From Chrysochromulina tobinii (Eukaryota), in NCBI GenBank assembly GCA_001275005.1, contig JWZX01002124.1, forward strand, positions 1 through 32,609: a DNA stretch of 32,609 bases, given 5' to 3'. Numbering within the stretch: position 1 is the first letter of the stretch; each line of letters begins with the position of its first letter. This document shows, piece by piece, positions 9,584 to 31,355 of this stretch. The notes beneath the pieces are model-generated. The model was not told where the DNA came from. It made no database searches and was given only the letters and a program-made list of their open reading frames with translations. The position numbers were made by a program, and so were the translations under genes.

Positions 9584-10773
9584 TCAGTAGTAGTCCTCAT
9601 CGCTGTCCTCGGCCTGCACGGGCAGGTGCGGGGTGACGGCGGCGTTGACCTGGTCAAGCAGCTCGAGCAGTTGGTCCAGCAGCTCCCCGAGTTGGGTGCG
9701 AGCCTGCACGAAGACTTTGCGCATCGGTGTGACCGTGGTGCGCACCTTCTCGATCGACTGCACGGCCTTCTGTGCCGCGACGGAGCGCACGGCTTTCATG
9801 CGCTGCTCGATGCAGCCAGAGGACATTCCCCGGAGCAGCGCCATCCCGAGCACGAGGAGCTCGGCCACGTTATCGAGGAGCTGCGCGTCGAGGGCATGGA
9901 GCGAGTGCGGCAGCCCCATCTCGTTGATCCGAGACATGATCAGTCGCGAGGTCGGCTCGTCGAAGAGTTCCGAATGGTAGCGCATGTCCTCATCCAGTCG
10001 CTTGAGCACGCGCGTCAGCACGTCCTCGCGAGTGCCCTCGATGCCGCTCGTGAGCAATAGCTGGCCGGAGCTCACACGCACCACGAGCTGCGTCGACCAC
10101 GCGTCGACGTTGTACATGAGCTCCATGCGTTTCTGGGCTGCCTCGGCTATGTCGAGCTCCTCGTCGGAAAAGAGAAGCGTGCTCTCGGCGCCCTTCTTCT
10201 TCTCCTCAATGTACAGCCGGTCGGCCCAGTCCTCGGAGCCGCCGAGGGAGAGGCCCACCTGATGAGGGAGGCAATCATCATGCACTCAGCGGAGAGGCAA
10301 TCCGCATGCAATCATAGGCATTCCTCGGAGCCGCCGAGGGAGAGGGCCCCCTGATGAGGGAGGCAATCATCATGCACTCGGGCGATTTGTATGCAACCAC
10401 CTGCGACAGGTACTCGGACACTTCGGTGAAGAGGCGCCGCAGGGCCCCTTCGTCCTCCAACGGCTCGAACGCAACGCGCCGCAGCGCCGCGACTACCTCG
10501 TCGCGTCGCTCCTTGAGAGCGAGGTTCTGGCGCTTGCGAAAGGCGGCCTCGAGCCCCTTTTGCACCTGTTTGGGGTGGCGGTTTCGGTCAGGTTTGGGGT
10601 GGCAGTTTGGGAAAGGTTTGGGTCAGGTTCGGGGTGGCGTGTGACCTGTTTGGGGTGGCGCGTCTTCTTGACCACCTCAGGCCGGTAGCCTTGTACGTAC
10701 AGCGGGCCACCACCACTGCCACCTCTCTTCTCCTTTGGCACCGTCGGCGGCTCCTCGGCCGCTGCTGCCGCGC

Positions 10774-10813
<40 letters not shown>

Positions 10814-11944
10814 TACAGCCTTGGGCGGTGCGAGTGGCGGCGGTGCGAGCGGCGGCGGCGCCAGGGGCGGCGGTGCCATCGGCGGTGGCGCGAAGGCGGT
10901 GGGTGGCGGCTGCGTCGGCGGTGCCGCGGGCGGCGGTGGCGGCGGCGCGTAGGGCGGCGTCCGCGGCTGAAACGCTGCTGGCGAAGGATTCGACATCATG
11001 CTTCGGCTGAATGCCTGAGCGAACACTTCGGCGAACGCGCCCATGATCATCTCGCCTGGCACCGTACCGGGCGTGCCTGGCGTGCTCATCTTGGCTCCCC
11101 CGCCGCTCTTGGCTGGCGTCTGAGAATCGCCTGCGCCGCCTTCGGCATCGTCGGCGTCGAGCAGCTCGAGGTGCAGCGCGAGCTTCTCGCCGTGCTCGTT
11201 GCGCATGAACTCGAAGTCGGCGTCACATGTGAGCGTGATGAGGTCATCAGGGCATTGAGGGTCAGGACACAGCAGCCGCGCTCGCTTCTCTCGCACCTCA
11301 AACTTGGCCTTGGCGAGATCGAGGACCTCCTCGAAGCTCGCGCAGCGCGGCACTAGCAGCATGCGGCGGTCTTTGCCGAGCGTACAGCGCAGCCGACGGG
11401 ACCCCGCGGGCGAGCGTGGCGAAGTCGGTTCATGCGAGAGGCGATGGGCTTGCGCATCCGCCGGAGCGCCGGTACCCTGCATCTCCTCCTCCGGCTTCTC
11501 CTCATCGCCATCACCATCGTCGCCATCGGCGGTGAATTCGCCGTACTCGCCGCGGCCGCGGCCTCCGCCGGCGTCGCCGCCCGGCGTCGCGAACGCCGTC
11601 GCGGCTCGATCCGCGAGGACGACTCGGCCCAGAGCCGACTTCAGCTGCGACGCCTGGCGAGGCTGCGTGGAGCTGCCAGCGGCGGCTCCGGAGAGCTGGC
11701 TATCGAGTGAGTGGGCACGATGCGCACGTGTAGCCTCCTCGATCCGCCTCCGCTCCGCCTCCTGCTCCGCCGCCGCTCGCGCACGCAGTCGCTCGCGGTG
11801 CCAGCGCTCAGCAGCTTCCATGAGATCAGCTGGAGGCAGAGGTTTGGGTGGCGGCTGCCAGGTATCGTGAAGCGAGCGCCACCGCCGCGCGTACTCGAGG
11901 ATGAGCTCCTGCTCGGCCGCTGACCGCTGGGCGGGCCGAGGCAT
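9584..11944 (-). CDS. PB1-domain, proline-rich protein with helical C-terminus. Three exons: 11944-10646, 10565-10401, 10258-9584 (about 712 aa)
   Basis: Three ORFs join in frame through two phase-0 GT-AG introns (RHPKQ|VQKGL and EYLSQ|VGLSL). PB1-like segment LRCTLGKDRRMLLVP...SFEEVLDLAKAKF...DDLITLTCDADF. Polyproline tract. Confidence 0.8.
10259..10400 (-). other. Spliceosomal intron (142 nt), repeat-family type, with internal duplication of its 3' end plus the exon start
   Basis: cag|GTggttgc...gagtgcatgatgattgcctccctcatcAG|gtg. Removal restores the frame. 58-nt direct repeat at 10230-10287 and 10322-10379 (2 mismatches). Confidence 0.85.
10566..10645 (-). other. Spliceosomal intron (80 nt) bounded by a 17-nt direct repeat
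   Basis: cag|GTcacac...ccccaaacAG|gtg. Removal restores the frame. acctgtttggggtggcg occurs at both 10564-10580 and 10644-10660. Confidence 0.8.
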
Positions 11945-12150
11945 CTTGAGAGTGCCGTCGTCGACGGAATCGTTTCGGAGATGACCTTAAACTCATGAAT
12001 ATGACCGCTGTTGTGAGTACTGCGACCTTTTCCCCGACTGACTCGAGCGGACGTACATGTCTTTCTAGTGCTTGTATGAATATGCCGCAATCTGGGTTGC
12101 GCCCCCGCTTCAAAGTGCTCGGTTCAACTCACACACGATTTTCGGAATCA

Positions 12151-15072
12151 ATGGCCGACGACGAAGGCATCCTTGAAGCTGGGGGCCCGGCGTCCACGCC
12201 GTCGAGGGCATCGAACAAAAAGGCGAAGCGCGCGGGCTCACCGCGTGGTCGTGGGACGACCCCAGGATCGGCCAAGCGATCGAGCAAGAAGCGGCTCTCG
12301 CCTGTGCAGCTGCCGCCGTCCGCACGCTTGCAGCCGGCGCCGCGATTGCCGGCATCGATGCAGTGCTACGACCTGGGCGGGCCATCCACCTCCGCCTCGA
12401 TCCGCACCAGCGATGATCCGGCGAACGTTTTCGCGACGCTGCCGCCCTCGCTGCAGGCGGCGCTCGAGCAGCTCGATGCGGCGCTGTCGAACATGCCCCC
12501 CGAGGAGGCGGCGGTGCACATGCGCCGGTGCGTCGCCTCGGGGCTGTGGGACCCAAGCGCAGGCTTCGGCGGCGACTCCGAATCACCCACGGGCGACAGC
12601 GACGAAGTGGGCTTTAGCGCGTCGTCGCCTGGGCGACTGAGCCTGCAAGGCGAGAATGAATCGGCGGCCGACTCAGACGCCATCCAGAGCGAGACTGACA
12701 GCAGCCGCGCCGAAGGGGAGAGCGGGCCCTCCGCCGCGCCGCCCGCCTTCTTTTCGACGCGCCCGCTCGTGGTGCGCGAGGGGTGGGAGCTCGACAGCGC
12801 CATGTGCTCTGAGCGCATCACGCCCGACACGACGGTGGTGGTGCTTCAGACTAAGGACCTGCCGGACGGCACGCGGCGCGCGCGCGTGGCCAAGGAAGGG
12901 AGCCTGGTGCCGCAGGGGTGGGTCTCGTGGGTGACCGCGAATGGCTCGATCGGGCTGGTGCCCAAGCAAGGCTCCGTCCATCTCAACCTCCCCCCTCCAG
13001 AAAAGGTGGAGGGATGGAGCGCCGCCTCGGGCGCCGATGACGCCTCGTCGAGCGCTCCCGACAGCGCGTCCGCCCGCCTCGGACGCAACACATACGTGCC
13101 CGGGCGCGTGACGCGCGCCCCGTCGCCCCGCGGTGGTCGGACCCAGCTGCCGGACCCACGCCGGGCTCCACCCCCACCCCCCGTGGGCGCGGGCGGACGA
13201 AGTGCTCCTCTCGCGGCGCTCAGCGGTGCGCTGGTCGCCCGGCGCGGCGCTCTCGGCGCGTCGTTCGGGGCTCCGAGCGCGCCGGGGGGGAGCCGCTTCG
13301 GGCGCAGCGGCAGCAGCTTCATGGGCGCGTCCGGCGCCCCGATGGAGGCGCCCATCGGCGCGCCTGTCGGCTTGCCCACAGACCTGCCGTACGATGCGGA
13401 ACGCCTCCTCTCGCGCTTCGGCCAAAAGGGCGTCAAGGAGTTCGCGGTGCCGCTGGGCGAGGGGTGGATGCAGCGTGCGGGGCGCGGCAAGTGGACCATG
13501 GTAGAGGAGGCCAAGGCGAACAAGGACGGCGATGGGCCCGTGATGCAGATCGAGAACCCGGAGCCGAGCTTCTACCTGCTCACCTACGACCAGAATCCGA
13601 ACGCCCACGTAACCAAAGGCAGCGCCTATCAAATCGAGGCCAACGTGCGCTGCCTGCCCGGCACAACCATCAAGGAGCAGCCCTACCTCGCGATCGTGCT
13701 CAACTGGCAGCGCGGCCGGTCCACAGTTACGGCGCCGTGCTTCACAGCCCTGGTGCTCACCGCGGCGTCGTGGCGCATAGACCAGTACTATGAGGGGCAG
13801 CAGACGACGCTGGCGGAGGTTCACGACGCGACACTCAAGGCGAACAATGGGATGGGCACGGGCTGGCAGCGTGTGCTCGTCGAGGTCAGGGGCGACCGCG
13901 TCACCGTCGAGGTGAACAAGAAGAAGGTCTTCGGCTCCTTTGTGATCTCGCCGCCCCCAGATGCGAATCTCGCCGCCTCGCGCGTGGTGCGCGCGAGCGC
14001 GCTCACAGGGCCGGTGGGCATCGCTACGTTCCGCTCGCGCGCGCAGATCAAGAAGTTTGAGCTCGCGCCGCTCGAGGGCGCCGAGGGCGAGGGAGGCTCG
14101 GCCGCGGACGGGCGCTATGAAGGCAAGCCGCCGTATGGGCAGGTGATGGGGGGTGATCCGAAACTCGTCGATGCGATCGAGGGCGAGATGCTCGAGCAGA
14201 GCCCAAATGTCGCGTGGGACTCCATCGGCGGCCTCGCCGACGCCAAGCGGCTGCTCAACGAGGCGGTCGTGCTGCCGCTGCTCATCCCCGACTACTTTGC
14301 GAAGGCGTCGTGCCGCGCGCCGTGGAAGGGCGTTCTGCTCTTCGGGCCGCCGGGCACGGGCAAGACGCTGCTCGCGCGCGCGGTCGCCTCGCTCGGCAAG
14401 ACGGCCTTCTTCAACATCTCCGCCTCGTCCCTCAGCTCTTACCACTACGGCGAGTCGGAGAAGCTGGCACGCACGCTCTTCGACATCGCGCGCTACTATT
14501 CGCCCTCGATCGTCTTCTTTGACGAGGTCGACGCGCTCGTCTCGACGCGCGGCGCCCAGGGCGAGCACGAGGCGAGCCGGCGGCTCAAATCGGAGCTGCT
14601 CACTCAAATGGACGGCATCTCGACGCGCGGGACGAGCGAGGGGCAAGTGATGGTGCTCGCCACCTCGAACAAGCCGTGGGACCTCGACGAGGCGATGCGT
14701 CGACGGCTCGAGCGGCGCATCTACGTGCCCTTGCCTTCGGAGCAGAGTCGCAAGGAGATGCTTGCCATCCACCTGCGCGGTGTCAAGCTAGGCCCCGATG
14801 TGGACCTGGTCGCGCTCGCCAACATCCTGGGCGGGTACTCGGGCGCGGACCTGCAACTCGTGTGTCGCGATGCGTCAATGGCGCCGATGCGCCGCGCCGT
14901 CGAGGGCAAATCTCCGATGGAGATCGTCGAGATGCAGGCGAGGGGAGAGCTCGAGGGGGCGGTGAGCATGGCAGACTTCGCCAAGGCTATGCAGACGACG
15001 CAGCCATCCTCCTCGGACAAGGAGCACGAGGAGTATGCCGCGTGGAACAACTTGTACGGGTGCAAGTCATAG
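12151..15072 (+). CDS. Katanin p60-like (meiotic-clade) AAA+ ATPase with long N-terminal extension
   Basis: PNVAWDSIGGL, PWKGVLLFGPPGTGKTLLARAVA (Walker A), IVFFDEVD (Walker B), EHEASRRLKSELLTQMDG, VLATSNKPWDLDEAMRRRLERRIYVPLP, GYSGADL. Start taken at ATG 12151 (MADDEG); the upstream in-frame ATGs lie in AT-richer sequence. Confidence 0.92.
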   Translation: MADDEGILEAGGPASTPSRASNKKAKRAGSPRGRGTTPGSAKRSSKKRLSPVQLPPSARLQPAPRLPASMQCYDLGGPSTSASIRTSDDPANVFATLPPSLQAALEQLDAALSNMPPEEAAVHMRRCVASGLWDPSAGFGGDSESPTGDSDEVGFSASSPGRLSLQGENESAADSDAIQSETDSSRAEGESGPSAAPPAFFSTRPLVVREGWELDSAMCSERITPDTTVVVLQTKDLPDGTRRARVAKEGSLVPQGWVSWVTANGSIGLVPKQGSVHLNLPPPEKVEGWSAASGADDASSSAPDSASARLGRNTYVPGRVTRAPSPRGGRTQLPDPRRAPPPPPVGAGGRSAPLAALSGALVARRGALGASFGAPSAPGGSRFGRSGSSFMGASGAPMEAPIGAPVGLPTDLPYDAERLLSRFGQKGVKEFAVPLGEGWMQRAGRGKWTMVEEAKANKDGDGPVMQIENPEPSFYLLTYDQNPNAHVTKGSAYQIEANVRCLPGTTIKEQPYLAIVLNWQRGRSTVTAPCFTALVLTAASWRIDQYYEGQQTTLAEVHDATLKANNGMGTGWQRVLVEVRGDRVTVEVNKKKVFGSFVISPPPDANLAASRVVRASALTGPVGIATFRSRAQIKKFELAPLEGAEGEGGSAADGRYEGKPPYGQVMGGDPKLVDAIEGEMLEQSPNVAWDSIGGLADAKRLLNEAVVLPLLIPDYFAKASCRAPWKGVLLFGPPGTGKTLLARAVASLGKTAFFNISASSLSSYHYGESEKLARTLFDIARYYSPSIVFFDEVDALVSTRGAQGEHEASRRLKSELLTQMDGISTRGTSEGQVMVLATSNKPWDLDEAMRRRLERRIYVPLPSEQSRKEMLAIHLRGVKLGPDVDLVALANILGGYSGADLQLVCRDASMAPMRRAVEGKSPMEIVEMQARGELEGAVSMADFAKAMQTTQPSSSDKEHEEYAAWNNLYGCKS

Positions 15073-15583
15073 GATGCTGTAGGACTTACAATCGCGCCAT
15101 GATTCGACGGCGGTGGCTGAGCAGCAGAGCTGGCGCTCGCACGGCCAGCTCGCTCGCCCTGTCCTCGCCCGCAGCATCTTTTTCAGCAGAGACGATGATG
15201 ATAATAGGAGATCGCAGTCACGAGTGTTCGGTTTTATGGAATGCGTGAGACCGGGGCGAGAAAGAGGCCGCCTGCGGCCTGGCGAGCGTTCGCCGTTCGG
15301 CACGTGGAAGACGCGAGACTCTGAGCTTTTGTTCGATACGAAACTTCGTTGAAATACGCCACGTCCGAAATTACATGATCGGCGCGTGGGTGTCAACGGT
15401 CTCGACGACGCGGTCCGGAGACCGGACGGGGCGACGTGAACTCGTGGGAGCGCGCGCGGACCGCGCGCCACGCGGTCCAAGGGCGCAGGCGTTCACGGGT
15501 CGCCGCTCACTCGATCCACCTGAGCGCTTTTTGCCTTTATGATTCGCCGTGCTTCGCTTCGGCGGTCATGAGATTGCACGAGA

Positions 15584-16531
15584 TTATTCCTCCTCATCTG
15601 CGGACGAGTCGCTGCTGACCATGCCGCCGCGGCCGAGCAGCCGGCCTTCCTCATAGCGCGCCTCCGGCCCCTGGACCTGCCTGCTAGGCCAGTGTATGCC
15701 ATCGCCGTCCGGCCCACCGCCGTAGACGGGTAGGAACCACAGGCGGGAGTCGGTGCCGAAGACCTGCTGCCAGTTGCGCCGCTCGCCCACGTCAAACATG
15801 GGTGACGGCCCTTCGATGGTCGTCTCGTTGAGCATCGCCATGCGTATGTGAAAGGGCGCGAAACACGAGAGCATGAGCGCGAGCGCGAGGTCGACGAAGG
15901 CAGCCATCGTGCCGAACATGTAGCGCTGAGTGCCCCACTGGCGCTCGAGAGAGCGTGCAAAGGCGCGGTCTTGGTAGATGCGTAACAGGAGCGGTCCGTT
16001 CGTGATGAGCACCCACAGCGTCGCGCTCAGCGTGTAGATCAGAAACAGGATGAAGAACTTCCGATTGTAGAACCCTACGGTGTTGACGACCCATGGGCAG
16101 AAGTGATCCATGTTGAGCACGACACGGCGCGTGACGCTGCAAAAGTGCGAGCGCAGTGGCCGGTACATGTTTGATCTGCGGCACAGTGCGAACTCGGACG
16201 CGAGCCGCTCGTCGCTCGCGACGCGTTGGTGCCACTCGAGTGGCGTCGTACCAGGATCGGTGAAGACGCACATGACGTAAGAGCAGAGGAGCAGTGCGAC
16301 GAGCACGTGGAAGACGACGACGCACGCCATGCCCAGCACGCCCTCATGAGGAAGCCACAATACATACGGCGCGTAGTTGACGGCGACAATGCCGAACACG
16401 AGGACGAACATCGGACTCACACAGACGCGAAAGACATTGCAAGGTGCGCAGCGGCATGGCTGAGGTGGCTCCGGCTCTGCGTCTGCTGGCAACCAGCTGT
16501 CGCGCCAATGGCCCGGTTCTCGTCGCGGCAT
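15584..16531 (-). CDS. DHHC-family protein S-acyltransferase (DHFC variant)
   Basis: Four hydrophobic helices, TDPG motif, RPLRSHFCSVTRRVVLNMDHFCPWVVNTVGFYNRKFFILF, NETTIE (TTxE), FDVGERRNWQQVFG...WFLP. Confidence 0.93.
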   Translation of the reverse strand: MPRREPGHWRDSWLPADAEPEPPQPCRCAPCNVFRVCVSPMFVLVFGIVAVNYAPYVLWLPHEGVLGMACVVVFHVLVALLLCSYVMCVFTDPGTTPLEWHQRVASDERLASEFALCRRSNMYRPLRSHFCSVTRRVVLNMDHFCPWVVNTVGFYNRKFFILFLIYTLSATLWVLITNGPLLLRIYQDRAFARSLERQWGTQRYMFGTMAAFVDLALALMLSCFAPFHIRMAMLNETTIEGPSPMFDVGERRNWQQVFGTDSRLWFLPVYGGGPDGDGIHWPSRQVQGPEARYEEGRLLGRGGMVSSDSSADEEE

Positions 16532-17132
16532 GCGCGTTCCTTCTTTTCACAGCCCGTGTTTTTTACTGAACACCCAAAACACCGGACCGGCGTACATACG
16601 TGTGCAGTTACAACTAGCTTACACGGGCGTCGCATTTACTTTACCTTTTCAAAACATGGTAGACGTCTACAATCCAGCTTTCGGTCAAGGATATCTTGAC
16701 TTCAGGCTCAAGCTCGTTATGGATCCCGGCCATGCAGTCGAGAGAGCGGGCGGATAAGTGAGCTAGACAGTTGCTTTTGTCATTTGTGACTAGTGTGTCA
16801 TCGTAGTAGTCGGTACATACATGTACATGTACTCATGTAGTCATGTACGTTGCGTCGCAGTCAATAGTGTGTGAGTGGCATCAATTTCAGGGCCTAAATG
16901 TAGTGATTTACAGTCAATATCGCCAAAATTTTCGCGCCTGCGGCGGGCAGAACTCCCGCGCGCATTGCGCGCGGGGCAACTTGATTACCACCCCTCTATA
17001 GAGCTCCCCTGTCACCTCCCAAGAGGCCGTCGACTACCCGGGTGCAGTCGTCGGAGATGGTGAGACACAAGTACATGTACGGAAGCCGGGAAGGAGCACG
17101 AACGGGAAGGAGACCAGGAGGAGACACGCCTG

Positions 17133-17156
17133 ACTGAACTGAACTGAACTGAACTG
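17133..17156 (+). repeat. Pentanucleotide microsatellite (ACTGA)n upstream of the EF-hand gene
   Basis: actgaactgaactgaactgaactg read directly. Confidence 0.8.
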
Positions 17157-17204
17157 TAGTCAAGTCTATACATTTCCGGTCGCTTGACTTGACCGTTTCA
17201 AAAC

Positions 17205-19061
17205 ATGTCAGACGCGACGTCCCTTCCTCCGCTGCCGCTGGCGCCTGCGGATCCTGACAGCGTCAAGGAGGCCACTGTGTCCTCGGCCACCGCCCAAGCG
17301 CAGGCTCAGCGCCCATCGGCGGTCGAACAGGCATACCGCAACACGATCGCGCCTCCGGGACGAACACGCACAGTTGCGAGGCCGAGCAAGCAGGGCGGCA
17401 GCGCGGCGGTGGGGACGGCAGAGCCCAGCGCGAGCGCTATCGCAGCATCCAAAGCTACCGATGGTATGTTAGCGGCATCCAAAGCTACCGATGGTATGTG
17501 CGACCCAGCGGTGGCGACGGCGACCGCGACGCGGCATCGACAGCCTTCCGCCTCGCCGTCTGCGTCCGCCCTCAGCAGCGCTGGCGATGTATCGTCCGCC
17601 CTGAAGGCGGCCGTCATGGTCGAGGCGGATGCGCGCGAGCACCTGCGCAAGATGCGCGCAAAGGTGCAGCGCGAGCTTGCGCGTGCCACGTCGATGGCGG
17701 CGCTCGAGGATCTGCGCGAGCGCAAGCGGCAGGAGGGGGTGAACACTCGAGCTGATTTCGAACGACAGGTCGGTCGCGACGTGACGCGCAAGATCGCCGA
17801 GGACCTGGCACAGGGCAAGGTGGAGCCTGCGACGGAAGAGGAGTTGCGCCGTCTCTCAGAACAGTTCAACCGGAGGCTGAAGGATCTGTACCCTGACGCC
17901 GAGGTGACGCCCAACTTCTTCACGCTGTTCAAGCACATCGACGTGGATGGCTCGCGCCGCGTCTCGTTTAGAGAGCTGACGATGCTCATCCGGGTCGAGC
18001 TGCGCCTGTCCAAGGTGATTGCCACTGTAGCCACTGATTGCCACTGATTGCGCTCGTCCGAGGCGGCGCTTCCACTCTCGAAGCTGCATGCGCATCTCTG
18101 AGTGCATGCTGATTGCTTCCTTCATCAGGCGACGCTCCCGCTCTCGAAGCTGCACGCACTCTGGGCGAAGCTTGATGAGAACGGGAGTGGGTTCGTGGAC
18201 GCAGGCGAGCTGGGGCGCTTCATGCGGCTAGGGCTGCCCGAGGCGAGCGCCGGCAGCCGCACGCGCACCCTGCTCGAGAAGCGTGCGGGGCGGAAGGCGC
18301 TGCTCGCGGAGCTCGCGGACCGCTCAGGCGAGGCTCTGACCCGCAAACTTCAAAAGGAGCACGTCCCGCCGGCGACCAAAGCCGAGCTCCTCCAGATGTC
18401 AGCGCTCTTCAATGCACAGATGGCGGCGCTTCAAACACGCGATGCGGGCGGGAACAGCTTCTATCGGCTGTTCAAGTACATGGACATGGACGACTCGGGA
18501 CGTGTCTCGTTCAAGGAGTTCAAGTTGATGATCCGCGATGAGCTCGAGGTGAGCTCCGCCGAGCTGCCGCACGTAAAGCTGCTCGGGCTGTGGAGGGCGC
18601 TCGATCACGACGAGAGCGGGTACATCTGTGCAGGCGAGTTCGGCCGCTTCATGAACCTCAAGGGCCGTGCCAGAGCCGAGGCCGCCAGCCCATACGCCAC
18701 CAACAATGCGACGAAGCGAGAGGCGAAGAATAATGAGATCAGGCGATTGGAGAAGGAGTGGCAGCTGCAGGCGGCACGGCGGGCAGAGGCGACTGCCGCG
18801 GCGCTCGCCTCTGAAGCACACCGGCTCGAGAGCGCTCTTTTCGCCGCCGCCGCTGCCAAGACGCCCGCCGTTAAGAGCCGAGGTCCCCACGACGATGCGC
18901 CGCTCACGCTGCCGCAGATCTCGCCCAACGGCTCGCGCACGCAGACGTTCACCAACGGCCTGTCGCCGTCGTCGGCGAGCACGGGTGCGCTCGAGACCAA
19001 TGCCGCGCTCCACAAGCTCGCTCGCTCGACGCTTGCCCACGGCCACGGCCGAGGGCGGTGA
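17205..19061 (+). CDS. EF-hand repeat protein (two modules, each with an EF-hand pair). Exons 17205-18014 and 18129-19061 (about 580 aa)
   Basis: Loops DVDGSRRVSFRE, DENGSGFVDAGE, DMDDSGRVSFKE, DHDESGYICAGE. After splicing (LRLSK|ATLPLSKL), module 1 aligns without a gap to module 2 (ELEVSSAELPHVKLLGLW). Confidence 0.88.
18015..18128 (+). other. Spliceosomal intron (114 nt), repeat-family type, containing a copy of the spliced exon junction
   Basis: aag|GTgattgccactg...ctgagtgcatgctgattgcttccttcatcAG|gcg. Contains an in-frame TGA. Removal gives the correct EF-module spacing. Confidence 0.88.
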
Positions 19062-27093: not shown

Positions 27094-30000
27094 CTACACA
27101 CCGTAGCCATCGTCGTCATCGGCAGCAGCTGCAGCTATTAACGAGCTCGCCGAAGCTTGCGGCGGCGCCGATGTGCGTTTGACAAAGCCCTGAGCCTGCA
27201 ATGCTTCCTTGAACTGGTCGTTATTCATAGCTGCCGGCACTCCAAGCGCACCGCGCAACTTCGCCACCAGCGCGTCCGTCAGCGGGTCGCCCGCAGATAC
27301 TGACACGCCCAACTGCTCGCTCACCTCGGGAGCCGACTCGGCCGTAAACACATAGGAGGCGGGCGCGGATTTCGCGGCGGCGGGTGCGGGTTTTGCGGCG
27401 GGTGCAGGTGCGGGCTTTGGGGCGGGTGCGGGTTTTGCGACGGGTGCGGGTTTTGTGGCCGTAGGTGCCGAAGTGCGTTCGACAAAGCCCTGAGATTGCA
27501 GTGCTTCCTTGAACTGCTCGTCGGCCATCTCGTCCTCCACTCCGAGCGCATCGCGCAAAGCGTCCAGCAGCGCGTCCGTCAGCGGGTCGCCCGCAGATAC
27601 TGACACGCCCAACTGCTCGCTCACCTCGGGAGCCGACTCGGCCGTAAACACATAGGAGGCGGGCGCGGATTTCGCGGCGGCGGGTGCGGGTTTTGCGGCG
27701 GGTGCAGGTGCGGGCTTTGGGGCGGGTGCGGGTTTTACGACGGGTGCGGGTTTTGTGGCCGTAGGTGCCGAAGTGCGTTCGACAAAGCCCTGAGCCTGCA
27801 ATGCTTCCTTGAACTGCTCGTTATTCATAGCTGCCGGCACTCCTAGCGCACCGCGCAACTTCGCCACCAGCGCGTCCGTCAGCGGGTCGCCCGCAGATAC
27901 TGACACGCCCAACTGCTCGCTCACCTCGGGAGCCGACTCGGCGGTGAAGACGTAGGCGACGGTCTCATCCTTGTCGGCGCCGATCATCGCTGCAAGCAGC
28001 GCATCCGGTGAAGCAGGCGGTTGCGGCGGCGCGGCTGCCGCCTTCGCCTTCGCCACCTCCGCCTCCTTTGCCTTCGCGCCGGCTCGAGCGGCAGCAACAC
28101 GTGCGTGCGCAGCCTTAGCCTCGGCCGCCGCCTTTTCCTTAGCCTCGGTCGCCGCCTTCTCCTTGGCCTCGGCCGCCGCCTTCTCCTTAGCCTCTTTCTC
28201 GGTCGCTGCCTTGGCTGCCGCCTGCGCCGCCGCTTCTTTCTCGGCAACCGCCTTCTTGGTCGCTGCCTTGGCTGCCGCCTGCGCCGCCGCTTCTTTCTCG
28301 GCAACCGCCTTCTCGGCCGCCACCCTCTCGGCCGCCGCTTTCTCGGCCGCCGCTTTCTCGGCCGCCGCTTTCTCGGCCGCCGCTTTCTCGGCCGCCACCC
28401 TCTCGGCCGCCGCCTTCTCGGCCGCTGCCTTCACGGCCGCTGCCTTGGCCGCCGCCTCTCGGCCACCGCCTTCTCGGCCGCTACCTTCTCAGCCGCCGCC
28501 TTCTCGGCCGCCGCCTTCTCGGCCGCCGCCTTCTCAGCCTCTGCCTCAGCCGCTGCCCTAGCGGCCGCCGCCTCGGCCATAGCTGCCGCCTTCTCAGCTG
28601 CTGCCGCATCGGCCAACGCCATCTCGACCGCCGCCTTCTCGACCGCTACCTTCTCGGCCGCCGCCTTCTCGGCCGCCGCCTTCTCGGCCGCCGCCTTCTC
28701 AGCCTCTGCCTCAGCCGCTGCCCTAGCGGCCGCCGCCACGGCCATAGCTGCCGCCTTCTCAGCTGCTGCCGCATCAGCCAACGCCTCCTCGACCGTCGCC
28801 TTCTCGGCCGCTACCTTCTCAGCCGCCGCCTTTTCGGCCGCAGCCTTCTCGGCCGCAGCCTTCTCGGCCGCCGCAGCCTCAGCCGCCGCTGTCTCGGCCG
28901 CCGCCATGTCGGCCGCCGCTACCGCCACTTCGGCCGCCGCCTTCCCAGCCTTGGCATTCTCTGCCCTGGCATACTCGGTGCCCGCCTCTTTCTCGGCTTT
29001 CCCCTTCTTCTCCTCCTGGCCCTTCTCGTCGGTATTTGCCTTCTCTTTCCCCTTCTCGTCGGCCTTGGCCGAGTCGCCTCGTGCAGTCGTCGCGTTCGCC
29101 TTACCCTTGTCATCCCCCTCCACCTTCGTCTCCGCATTCGCCTCCACCGCCGCCCCAGCCTCCACCTTCGGCTTGGCCTCGCGCGCCGCCGCTGCCTCCG
29201 CCTCCGCGGCTGCGCTTGCCTCCGCAGCTTCTGCTGCAGCTCGCGCCTCCGCTGCCGCCGCCTCCACTGTCGCCGCCTCTATTGCTGCCGCCTCAGCTGG
29301 CGTTGCCTCAGCTGCAACACGCGCTTCCTCGGCGCGCGAGTCGACCTCCTTCGAGACCTTCTTCGAAACCTCCTTGAGGCGGATGTGCTCTGCCTCCGCA
29401 GCCTTCGATGCCTCCGCAGCCTTCGCAACCACCGCTTTCGCATGCGCCGCCGCCGCAGCCGCCTCTGCTGCCGCCGCCTCTGCTGCCGCAGCCTCTGCTG
29501 CCGCCGCCTCTGCTGCCGGGGTTTCTGCCTCCTGCTTCGTCTTTTGATCTTCCAGCGCTTTCGTCGTTTCCGGCCTTGCAAATTCTGTACGTGCCTGTGC
29601 GCCCGTGTCCTGTTCAAGTTGTGCTGTCATCTTCTGCTTGAAGGCGAGGACGGCAGCCGTAGTTGCGACGCTAAGCGACAGCTTACCACCGTTCCCGAAG
29701 AGACTGCTAGCACCGGGTTCGCCATCTGGCTCCGTTGTTCCTGCGAGTTCCGGAAACACGTTCATCAAATTGGCCAGTGCTGCTTTAGCGTAATGCACCA
29801 CAAGGTTTTCCTCGTGCGCAACGAGTTGCTCCAGATGTGGCAGGCCACCTGACTGAACCAGAACTTGGCCCCAACTAGGTTCCTTTGAGAGATTGAGGCA
29901 GAGGCCAGCAGCGTATGTAACCACCATAGTATCTGCTGCAGTTAGGCACTGCACGATCTCCTCGCCTACATCGCACGTCAACAGCTGCTGCTTGGTCGCT

Positions 30001-31355
30001 GCGCTGAAGAGGTCCAGCGCATCGGAGCATATGTTGGCGAGGCAGTACAGGGCCCATGCAACAAGCTCGTCGGACTCGTTTGTCAGCAGGCGTGACAACT
30101 GTATGACTGTTCCTTGCTCTCGCAACGTTTGGCCGAAGGCAGTGCCTTCTTCTTGTGAGCACTGGTCGAGGATCTCGGCTAGATCGAGCACGTCATCTAA
30201 TTCAAGCACGGGGTACTCGCGAGCAATTGGCAAGACCGACGTCAGACCAGCTTTTGCTGTCAGAGTATCATAGATCATGGGTGGTGTCGCACGGAACGGA
30301 GACAGCGTGGGATTCCTTGGCAAAGATGATGAGCCGCCCATCAGCTGATCGGGTAGCGGCATGCGAGACGCCGCCTGAGGGTTGCCATCTAGCGACGCGA
30401 CTAGTGCTGTAGCCGCCGCCGCGGCCGCCTGCTGGTTGCCGTTCAGCAACGCGGCTAGCGTGGCACGAGCGGCGGTGGCGGCGATGGCCATCGTCGGTGA
30501 CATGGGCCCCGTCGGTAATGTTGTTTCGGCCTGAATTGAAGGTGGAGCGGCATTCATCGGCGACGTAGGTTCTCCAGCAATCATCGGCAACGTAAGTTGT
30601 CCAGCCACCATCGGAAAAGATGCCGAACCACCCATCATCGGGTCGGGCAGAGGCATACGGGTCGGAGGAAGCGTGCTATTCGTCGGTGACGAAGCAAGCG
30701 TGGCATTCATGGAAAAAGATGATTCGCCGCCCATGGGCTGACAAGGTAGTGGCATACGGGACGCAGGTCGCTTGAAATTAATCGGAGACATTGGTAGCAT
30801 GGCATTAATTGGCAAAGGTTCTGAGCCGCCCAGCAGCTGAGCGCCGAGTGATAACTGCGCCTCGAGAATTTGGCGCCTCGTAAATTTGGGCCCCGACTCA
30901 TCAGCTGGTTGTTTACTTGCCGTGATCGTTGTGACACTGCCAAGGTTCGATGCCGACTCGCTGCTCGAACCGGCGCCCGGCATGCTACGAGCGCTAGCGA
31001 TAGAAGCGATAGCAGCGATAGACCCGGCCTTTTTGCCAGGACTTGCGGCGGATGATTTCTTCCCGCCGCCATCAAGTGTGCGAAATGCCTGCACAACCTG
31101 CGTAGCATCCAACTTGCGCGGTGTCGCGGGTCTGCTGGTGCCGATTGCGGCCGCAGCGCGGTCCCATAAGGTATTCCTCTTCGGTGCTGTCGCAGCCTTT
31201 TCGTGGGCCTTTTCTGGGCTGCCATGTGAAGCTTGTCTCGCACGTTCAGCGGCTATCCGTTCAGCGGCTATAGCAAGCCGCTGTCGTTTCTCAACTTGCG
31301 CTATGTAAGCAAGCCCTGGACCCGGTGGAGAGCGCGGTGGAGGCGACTTTGGCAT
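27094..31355 (-). CDS. Large protein (about 1420 aa): Pro/Met-rich N-terminus, armadillo-like repeats, Ala/Glu/Lys helical repeats, three C-terminal repeated domains; single-base frameshift near 28457
   Basis: ORFs 28431-31355 and 27094-28434 both carry EKAAA repeats and join if one base is restored (gcctctc vs the repeat unit gccttctc). ARM-like helices [29 protein letters not shown]. Confidence 0.72.
27167..27956. repeat. 300-bp coding tandem repeat, about 2.6 copies
   Basis: Lines starting 27181/27481/27781 and 27301/27601/27901 are near-identical at an exact 300-bp period. Confidence 0.95.
28120..28900. repeat. 15-bp-based coding minisatellite (EKAAA)n with larger duplicated blocks
   Basis: Repeated ttctcggccgccgcc/t units; duplicated blocks encoding [15 protein letters not shown] and [14 protein letters not shown]. 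Confidence 0.9.

Follow-up and report, generated by a model that had tools for sequence, protein, structure and literature searches.

Two introns in the window (the whole 32,609-nucleotide stretch, contig JWZX01002124.1 of the freshwater haptophyte alga Chrysochromulina tobinii) belong to a large intron family, which arises by insertion with target duplications that are long and vary in length, rather than from a fixed element. In many of these introns, a duplicate of the gene's own next-exon start is joined to a copy of another intron's 3′ end, and we propose, at roughly even confidence, that they form as reverse transcripts of excised intron RNA made at a staggered DNA break. It is likely that introns already present give rise to new ones, and that they do so without acting as ordinary transposons. 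A more tentative proposal is that the ordinary spliceosomal introns of this alga are themselves mobile, with excised RNA of at least two unrelated acceptor types copied 3′ end first into staggered breaks. The origin of spliceosomal introns is an old question, and mass intron gains have been attributed to transposons with defined ends; to our knowledge, intron-to-intron copying has had little direct support.

The two introns lie in an EF-hand gene and in a PB1-domain gene on the opposite strand:

17205..18014, plus strand: EF-hand gene, exon upstream of the intron (weak EF-hand_1 match at aa 241-262, E 0.0069, below cut-off)
18015..18128, plus strand: predicted EF-hand gene intron, 114 nt, phase 0, GT..AG (sequence, junction alignment)
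18016..18051, plus strand: repeat filler TGATTGCCAC, 3.7 copies (repeat analysis)
18049..18062, plus strand: decayed copy (11/14) of the upstream exon's last 14 nt (sequence comparison)
18063..18091, plus strand: copy (25/29) of the downstream exon's first 29 nt, with a GC start (sequence comparison)
18098..18128, plus strand: acceptor cassette with candidate branch point CTGAT (by consensus only), pyrimidine tract, and CAG
18129..19061, plus strand: EF-hand gene, downstream exon (EF-hand_6, E 8.8e-15)
10646..11944, minus strand: PB1-domain gene, first long exon (PB1, E 0.0002, below cut-off)
10566..10645, minus strand: 80-nt intron of another type, with CCCAAAC/CTGAC units (skipped in RNA run X13)
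10401..10565, minus strand: PB1-domain gene, middle exon, 165 nt (sequence, homolog alignment)
10259..10400, minus strand: PB1-domain gene intron, 142 nt, phase 0, two cassette units (RNA X13, X14, X16)
10351..10381, minus strand: internal cassette copy, whose AG, if used, would give a frameshift and a stop (sequence)
10322..10350, minus strand: copy (27/29) of the downstream exon's first 29 nt (sequence comparison)
10259..10289, minus strand: terminal acceptor cassette of the PB1-gene intron (sequence comparison)
9584..10258, minus strand: PB1-domain gene, last exon (homolog alignment)

At the PB1-gene intron (10400-10259, minus strand; CAG|GTGGTTGC..CAG|GT), exactly 142 nt are skipped by RNA contigs X13, X14, and X16, in all three RNA runs. 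Three homologs (59-70% identical) are continuous over both junctions of this gene, although they are possibly transcript-derived and hence no test of intron position; homolog P0296 carries PF00564. The last 15 nt of the neighboring 80-nt intron are identical to the last 15 nt of its upstream exon. The EF-hand gene intron (AAG|GTGATTGC..CAG|GC) is predicted, with indirect support: when it is removed, the junction aligns without gaps to the same protein's second EF-hand pair, and its retention is predicted to introduce an in-frame stop. Its junction is absent among the RNA joints listed; an X13 RNA contig aligns from 18128, and 95 further letters fall outside that piece.

The sequence-only reading of this DNA had reported that both introns are in phase 0 and that their last 31 nt (18098-18128, plus strand, and 10289-10259, minus strand) are 28/31 identical, and we confirm both observations. 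A third cassette copy inside the PB1-gene intron (10381-10351, minus strand) matches the other two at 27/31 and 30/31 positions, and a partial, overlapping match (21-22/31) starts at 10315 on the same strand; elsewhere in the window, the best match to the 31-mer is at most 19/31. As that reading had also noted, the two introns have no terminal inverted repeats, with nothing beyond a 5-nt CTGAT/ATCAG pair. An Rfam search of the window and searches of viral and prokaryotic collections gave no matches, and a structured or hairpin element was rejected, the folding of both introns resembling that of shuffles (z −0.10 and −0.06). Both introns carry a copy of the 29-nt start of their own downstream exon (25/29 for EF-hand, 27/29 for PB1), a key feature that the sequence-only reading had overlooked. 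We infer that the GC-start copy at 18063..18091 (plus strand) is the target duplication and supplied the original donor, and the decayed upstream-exon copy at 18049..18062 (plus strand) would represent a second, nested event. For the alike 5′ ends, GTGATTGC and GTGGTTGC, the best reading is that G|GT(G) of the target became joined to repeat filler.

Beyond the window, the motif forms the acceptor end of introns in a large family with 99 distinct sites, in keeping with the multicopy family in unrelated genes that the sequence-only reading had predicted: its hosts include IleRS, asparaginase, trigger factor, ARM, NHL, and C2 genes, and similar introns are present in at least four non-paralogous genes, as introner surveys require. 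There are 178 exact pattern matches to the cassette, in 125 loci, and read depth is 7083 for the cassette versus ∼45. The copies lie at acceptor ends, almost always in sense, with a CAG ending at 87/99 sites and a sense downstream frame at 80/93. A clearly antisense position is seen at just 2/99 sites and a clearly intergenic one at none, which may be more skew than selection alone gives. CAG and then target sequence come directly after 150/178 pattern matches, without the poly(A) or simple-repeat tail of a retroelement, and 39/99 sites have at least two tandem units. The same geometry recurs, in 14 of 25 cases, with a second cassette that is unrelated to the first. The phase-0 excess does not reflect a property of an element, a candidate that we rejected: counts for phases 0:1:2 of 52:17:11 match the 47:21:12 expected from G|GT availability in coding DNA (p=0.51). 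The sequence-only reading had proposed looking for a long autonomous element containing the motif; none of the 99 sites (∼240 kb covered) resembled the end of a long free-standing element.

The sequence-only reading had described a family built from a TGATTGC(C) repeat, and in that wording, as a single element, it is not supported. The shared sequence is 3′-anchored and extends mostly 30-55 nt, within a range of 30-90 nt; the 5′ ends are locus-specific copies of the target exon, whereas the shared part derives from other introns and in some cases brings along fragments of their exons. Similarity to both intron boundaries, which surveys demand, is seen only between the introns at L065 and L099 (68/70 end to end).

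The start of the next exon is copied upstream of the motif, over 14-42 nt, at 46/99 sites, compared with 1/489 shuffled pairs and 5/99 shifted controls; this range differs from a fixed, short target duplication of 3-8 nt. The remaining 53/99 sites have an anchored duplicate score below the cut-off of 12, to which duplications shorter than ∼12 nt are invisible, yet these also occur. Among 9 tabulated RNA-supported introns at L073, 2 have a donor that coincides with the first base of an exon duplicate, 9 or 16 nt long. A GT or GC start is present in 31/46 duplicates and supplies the donor in simple introns, which are 66-99 nt long and contain only the duplicate and the cassette. When the duplicate and the cassette are removed together, the reading frame stays open in 26/32 cases, and Pfam positions are joined exactly in IleRS (253|254) and in a tRNA-binding domain (25|26|27), the only 2 of 24 exon pairs with one family spanning the junction. 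Silent-looking changes in the EF-hand copy had suggested that exon copies come from a diverged allele, but this is not supported; mismatches fall at codon positions 1/2/3 as 13/12/20, with 25 non-synonymous and 20 synonymous.

The right part of the introns matches other introns backwards from the terminal AG over a variable length, as in the donor-recipient pairs L063/L053 (62/66), L093/L024 (57/57), L080/L074 (72/73), and L036/L121 (85/90). The L065 intron is a copy of an entire intron at L099 from GT to AG, without a long duplication and with an upstream flank partly like the donor's. A fragment of the donor gene's exon is sometimes carried within the copied part; intron matches to exons of other loci with scores of at least 17 number four, all adjoining a cassette (control, 2/8487). 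Sites 458 and 3326 at L006 share an intron, but because they seem to belong to internal paralogous domains, they were not counted as a donor pair. Donors are not mainly neighbors (mean scores 24.1 in cis and 25.2 in trans), and an origin mainly within the same gene is not supported on the mean, with a weak trend in the tail, high-scoring pairs being slightly commoner in cis (5/85 versus 116/4766, p=0.06).

Microhomology at the 5′ junction averages 1.85 nt versus 0.60 (maximum 1.12 in 500 shuffles) and is at least 3 nt in 10/33 cases against 1.0, values that derive from the 33/46 scorable cases and may be biased by duplicate-end calling. A looser test (3.9 versus 1.1, 19/30) was set aside, because related copies descending from a single intron inflate it. 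On visual inspection, the 23 offset cases show no clear foreign bases separating AG from the duplicate, and where a copy is dispensable for splicing it ends 0-3 nt before AG. At L073, an antisense insertion lies within an open reading frame with a 25-nt duplicate and a 57-nt unit present four times; no joint across this array is among the RNA joints listed. The family shows a fixed 3′ end, variable 5′ truncation, variable duplication, and 5′-junction microhomology, all of them features of non-LTR retrotransposed sequences. There is neither a fixed 5′ end nor the terminal inverted repeats of a MITE introner, and the whole-intron, duplication-free, sense-only pattern of reverse splicing fits L065 alone.

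Length varies between assemblies at 19/99 sites, some of it in flanks or other introns. The claim that the family is active is thus upheld as regards gain and loss of units, but no allele lacking a whole intron was seen among the 48 sites present in more than one locus, many of which are probably from one strain. Polymorphic units at L018/L104 and L073/L057 are locally templated; the unit in L018/L022 that is missing from L104 copies exon sequence 25 nt downstream.

A plausible route for reverse transcription of excised intron RNA begins with one strand nicked just before the stretch to be duplicated, which would prime copying from the template's 3′ end. Synthesis would halt at a variable point, the new strand would pair with the other, staggered end through 1-8 nt of microhomology, and fill-in would then duplicate the target. 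Sense insertions with a GT- or GC-start duplicate would be kept by selection, because splicing restores the mRNA exactly, and each new intron could in turn become a template. Later, the duplicates could undergo unequal exchange and so yield tandem arrays as well as nested forms like the two introns in the window. The least certain step is that the template would be excised intron RNA, with a non-LTR-type reverse transcriptase acting in trans as the candidate enzyme; neither a reverse transcriptase nor any other enzyme was identified in the sequence covered. Variable duplication, 5′ truncation, and 5′ microhomology are marks of target-primed reverse transcription, and the lack of foreign bases after AG, with copies ending at AG, fits a template that ends there, as excised intron RNA does. 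Because the copies extend across the candidate branch point, debranching of the RNA or read-through would be required.

A DNA template, which would give the same product, is the main rival and in our estimation less likely. While a break is repaired or replication restarts, a nascent strand would jump at (A)G|GT to the 3′ end of another intron, copy 30-90 nt, and return by microhomology 14-42 nt behind its exit, through polymerase-theta-like end joining or microhomology-mediated break-induced replication. No transposon enzyme is needed, and the 5′-junction microhomology agrees with such switching, and so does the 3′ junction, where 1-3 nt match AG in 22 of the 29 GT/GC-start cases that no other cassette precedes; 7 of 31 GT/GC-start cases nonetheless have no 3′-junction match, and the donors are mostly not neighbors. 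The locally templated polymorphic units also point to DNA, the L018/L022 unit needing local DNA template switching, and L065, without a long duplicate and with a donor-like flank, suits homology-guided DNA copying. However, DNA donors do not end at AG, and yet donor exon bases beyond it were seen in none of the copies, even inside introns or in antisense, where selection is weak (∼10 cases).

We regard as improbable a nonautonomous SINE-like retroelement (an introner) with its own master copy and the cassette as its 3′ end. Non-LTR introners exist, and the fixed, highly conserved 3′ end, with its many exact matches and high read depth, is what such an element would give, but upstream of ∼31 nt nothing is common except repeat units, the best matches are pair-specific and include host exon fragments, the unrelated second cassette has the same geometry, and none of the 99 sites (∼240 kb) resembled the end of a long free-standing element. 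It is very improbable that the introns are old, with 3′ ends homogenized by gene conversion and exon copies arising by local tandem duplication, the old 5′ part later being lost. Simple introns composed of duplicate and cassette alone, and the L073 antisense insertion into an open reading frame where no acceptor existed, argue against this, even though tandem arrays of acceptor plus exon start are common and vary between assemblies, both window introns are nested in this manner, and every allele seen retains an intron.

If spliceosomal introns of this alga are mobile units, intron gain could proceed as a chain from intron to intron with no dedicated element, and would be filtered out by introner surveys; because the 5′ half is locus-specific, pipelines that look for end-to-end similarity likely miss this class, and the copied-intron route may be undercounted in other genomes. 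Each intron records its target, as the exon duplicate, and sometimes its donor, as a foreign exon fragment, so that donor-to-recipient order is readable from one genome and RNA and DNA routes are separable. The duplicates would also let recombination remove introns precisely, as a prediction, and they account for the tandem arrays.

Target-primed reverse transcription of nonautonomous RNAs by non-LTR retrotransposons likewise yields a fixed 3′ end with variable truncation and duplication. The introns described here differ in having no poly(A) or simple tail and no master element at the 99 sites (∼240 kb), longer duplications, and a strong gene and sense-strand bias. About 5% of classified cases in introner surveys are non-LTR. 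The literature searched, mostly outside subscription journals, held no description of an exon duplicate joined to a copied intron tail. The introner-like elements of Symbiodinium and Polarella glacialis (classes 4/5 and 6/8/10; bioRxiv 10.1101/2020.10.14.339549), in the accessible parts of that report, similarly carry the acceptor and take the donor from the first bases of the target duplication, with recruited exon bases setting a phase bias and both orientations in some classes. They differ in a fixed 3-8 nt duplication and in each class being a defined element, with inverted repeats in Symbiodinium, in contrast to the variable 14-42 nt duplications, ragged 5′ ends, lack of inverted repeats, and host-intron source in this alga. 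An introner family from a Chrysochromulina sp. MAG (bioRxiv 10.1101/2022.06.06.494994) shares the haptophyte host and lack of terminal inverted repeats, but the example in the available text has a 4-bp duplication and the opposite geometry. In the portions available of another survey (PMC12130899), Emiliania huxleyi fam24 (five copies, "10bp terminal direct repeats") and the non-LTR Pavlovales fam1 both co-opt the 5′ site and carry the 3′ site, and judging from their listing rows, these may be small examples of the same process; the survey requires similarity to intron boundaries, 5′ with 5′ and 3′ with 3′, and its accessible listing has no families for C. tobinii. Models of intron transposition, tandem duplication, and double-strand-break repair, as outlined in the available sections of PMC3296678, similarly have an existing intron as source, a duplicated exon segment that gives a splice site, or direct repeats that flank filler DNA. 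Reverse splicing there predicts whole introns without duplication, and tandem duplication predicts no foreign sequence; unlike any of these models singly, the introns described here combine a duplicate and foreign sequence in one product, with traceable donors.

The 31-nt 3' ends of the EF-hand and PB1 introns, which lie in unrelated genes, are identical at 28 of 31 positions, and both introns are phase 0 in an AG|G context, as the sequence-only reading had noted. These two introns aside, the best match to the 31-mer in the window is no better than 19/31. The shared end (the cassette, with a candidate branch point, pyrimidine tract, and CAG) is present twice in the PB1 intron:

18015-18128, plus strand: EF-hand intron, 114 nt, phase 0
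10400-10259, minus strand: PB1 intron, 142 nt, phase 0
10381-10351, minus strand (PB1 gene): third cassette copy, inside the PB1 intron

Precisely 142 nt are skipped at the PB1 intron in all three RNA runs, a neighboring 80-nt intron is skipped in one of the three, and three homologs of the PB1 protein run unbroken across both junctions. The EF-hand joint is absent among the RNA joints listed; retention of this intron introduces an in-frame stop, and the spliced junction aligns without gaps to the second EF-hand pair of the same protein. The 80-nt intron (10566-10645, minus strand) is built of CCCAAAC/CTGAC units and its final 15 nt repeat the end of the upstream exon, a reverse geometry; in metagenome loci L019 and L052 its aligned 3' part has 11 additional nt. 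What the sequence-only reading overlooked is that each intron also repeats the opening 29 nt of its own downstream exon (25/29 matches for EF-hand, 27/29 for PB1). In our reading both introns are composite: the EF-hand intron began as a GC-donor insertion and was lengthened by a second event duplicating the exon end, and the PB1 intron consists of two units.

The cassette introns form a real, multicopy family extending well beyond the window. A 26-nt pattern lacking the final CAG, run on about half of the metagenome collection, recovered 126 stretches, with none in the viral and prokaryotic collections; among 178 matches in 125 stored loci, CAG follows in 150 and CAGGT in 113. Under relaxed criteria, 357 hits fell into 202 clusters, reduced to 99 sites after removing short-flank cases and merging duplicates; 87 end in CAG, followed by GT in 70 and GC in 9. 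A codon model, for which genes of the window served as training set (correct strand in 166/186 training pieces), places the downstream frame on the same strand at 80 of 93 callable sites, the value expected if nearly all sites are sense. A phase-0 excess is evident (52:17:11) and does not fit bare GT availability (p=0.002), but it matches G|GT availability (p=0.51). The PB1 cassette copies have a DNA depth of 7083, compared with ~45, which suggests roughly 700-1500 close copies, although depth is not itself a copy number. Some 5-6 kb loci (L013, L018, L025, L006, and L028) contain four to six sites, compared with two per 32.6 kb in the window, and L006:458 and L006:3326 are near-identical introns of one gene, at matching positions in what resembles a pair of paralogous internal domains.

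At 46 of the 99 sites there is a copy anchored to the start of the exon, compared with 1 of 489 pairs after shuffling and 5 of 99 shifted controls. These duplicates are 14-42 nt long, shorter ones falling under the score cutoff, and 31 of the 46 start with GT or GC. In 26 of 32 GT/GC-start cases the frame stays open once copy and cassette are taken out; the remaining six are nested within longer introns or have a short upstream exon, and some open cases are nested too. Pfam searches of 24 exon pairs found one family bridging the junction in two (IleRS and a tRNA-binding domain), with profile positions joining exactly in both, and solved IleRS structures concur. Among nine tabulated RNA-supported introns of locus L073, the donor is the first base of the exon duplicate in two, and five others contain internal exon copies. 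Mismatches between copy and exon (13, 12, and 20 at codon positions 1, 2, and 3) are consistent with decay after duplication.

The rest of the inserted sequence derives from other introns. AG-anchored matches between unrelated loci are variable in length and pair-specific (62/66, 57/57, 72/73, 63/64, and 85/90 nt), and where the copied segment is exon in one partner the direction of copying can be read: the asparaginase intron of L053 contains 28 nt of an L063 exon, and a piece of an L099 exon is present in L065, L094, and L035. Such matches to exons of other loci at a score of at least 17 number only four in 8722 comparisons, all adjoining a cassette (control, 2/8487). The L065 intron is a 68/70 copy of an entire L099 intron, GT to AG, which itself holds exon sequence from ~130 nt upstream in its gene. 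Microhomology between duplicate end and copied part averages 1.85 nt, compared with 0.60 in 500 shuffles (33/46 scorable). By eye, no clear foreign bases follow the AG in 23 offset cases, and copies not required for splicing stop 0-3 nt before AG. Two insertions are antisense, each with a 25-nt duplicate: one directly follows an apparent donor in L025, and the other (L073:3454-3706) comprises a 57-nt unit four times over in the open frame of a plus-strand gene. The latter array has no stop in the host frame, and its translation may yield a 19-residue repeat.

The insertions show duplication of the target, truncated copying from other introns anchored at the 3' end, microhomology at the 5' junction, and two orientations. 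A plausible route would begin with a staggered break in target DNA, with priming at the site destined to be the acceptor junction, then annealing through microhomology and fill-in; selection would retain sense events whose duplicate starts with GT or GC. That the template is excised intron RNA, copied by a reverse transcriptase acting in trans, has about an even chance of being correct, and is favored by copies ending at AG. Those same ends count against template switching on DNA, a less probable but serious alternative. Several points favor it over the RNA route: no enzyme for the latter was found in the sequences available, copying runs across the candidate branch point, the L065 copy has no long duplicate, some units are templated locally, and the sites strongly favor genes and the sense orientation. 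A SINE-like master element fits less well than either template reading and is unlikely, and old introns undergoing conversion, which likewise fit less well, are more improbable still.

Length differs between assemblies at 19 of 99 sites, chiefly by gain or loss of a cassette plus exon-start unit or of filler repeats (a few differ in flanks or adjacent introns). No allele lacking the whole intron occurs at the 48 sites represented more than once, a weak test because presence of the motif was the criterion for selecting loci and many of them probably come from one strain. Relative to L099, L117 contains an additional unit of 77 nt resembling the exon-derived unit of L086, with a related piece in L031; misassembly may account for it. 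An acceptor cassette of a second type, with the end CCCCACAG and no relation to the first, has an exon-start duplicate of the same geometry in 14 of 25 cases (up to ~49 nt); it was not found in the window. Its sites include:

L028:3944, L051:1677, L065, L066, L069, and others: second acceptor cassette

The window itself is poor in introns, and the majority of long frames are uninterrupted. The region occurs in runs from freshwater and mixed-culture samples; the best named match of the DHHC protein is Prymnesium parvum (60%), and the best named matches of fibrillarin include Emiliania huxleyi. We take the source to be a haptophyte, probably of the Prymnesiales and perhaps of the genus Chrysochromulina. 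Between 525 and 25913, frames called by eye include an FAD monooxygenase, a YqgF-like nuclease, a katanin-like AAA ATPase, a formin, and a GARP/Myb-like factor, and homologs confirm fibrillarin and the DHHC palmitoyltransferase. The intergenic stretch at ~16600-17200, with an ACTGA microsatellite at 17133-17156, is another high-copy repeat (DNA depth 2000-4200, compared with ~50, and RNA depth in run X13). Positions 27164-28063 and 28030-29530 hold a coding repeat of 300 nt in 2.6 copies and long minus-strand 15-nt repeats rich in alanine, lysine, and glutamate; the frames predicted at 28431-31355 and 27094-27987 may belong to a single gene interrupted by a frame break.

In the accessible parts of a review (PMC11282704), a list of intron-gain models (PMC3296678), and the C. 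tobin genome paper (PMC4580454), this architecture is not described; we found no account of it in the open-access literature, although supplements may contain such families, and the rows listed in one supplement (PMC9860276) are MAG assemblies only. The cassette introns fail as a defined element, having neither both ends shared, terminal inverted repeats, nor a fixed short duplication; the Introner-like interpretation survives in that they behave as introners whose donor comes from the target. According to the accessible text, the donor in dinoflagellate introner classes is supplied by a duplication of fixed length, 3-8 nt (10.1101/2020.10.14.339549), compared with 14-42 nt here, and a Chrysochromulina sp. 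example with a 4-bp duplication has the opposite geometry (10.1101/2022.06.06.494994). A 2025 survey, which in the portion available demanded similarity at both intron boundaries, reports no families for C. tobinii, but does report one in E. huxleyi, with five copies and 10-bp direct repeats (PMC12130899), whose geometry is the same as that of the cassette introns.
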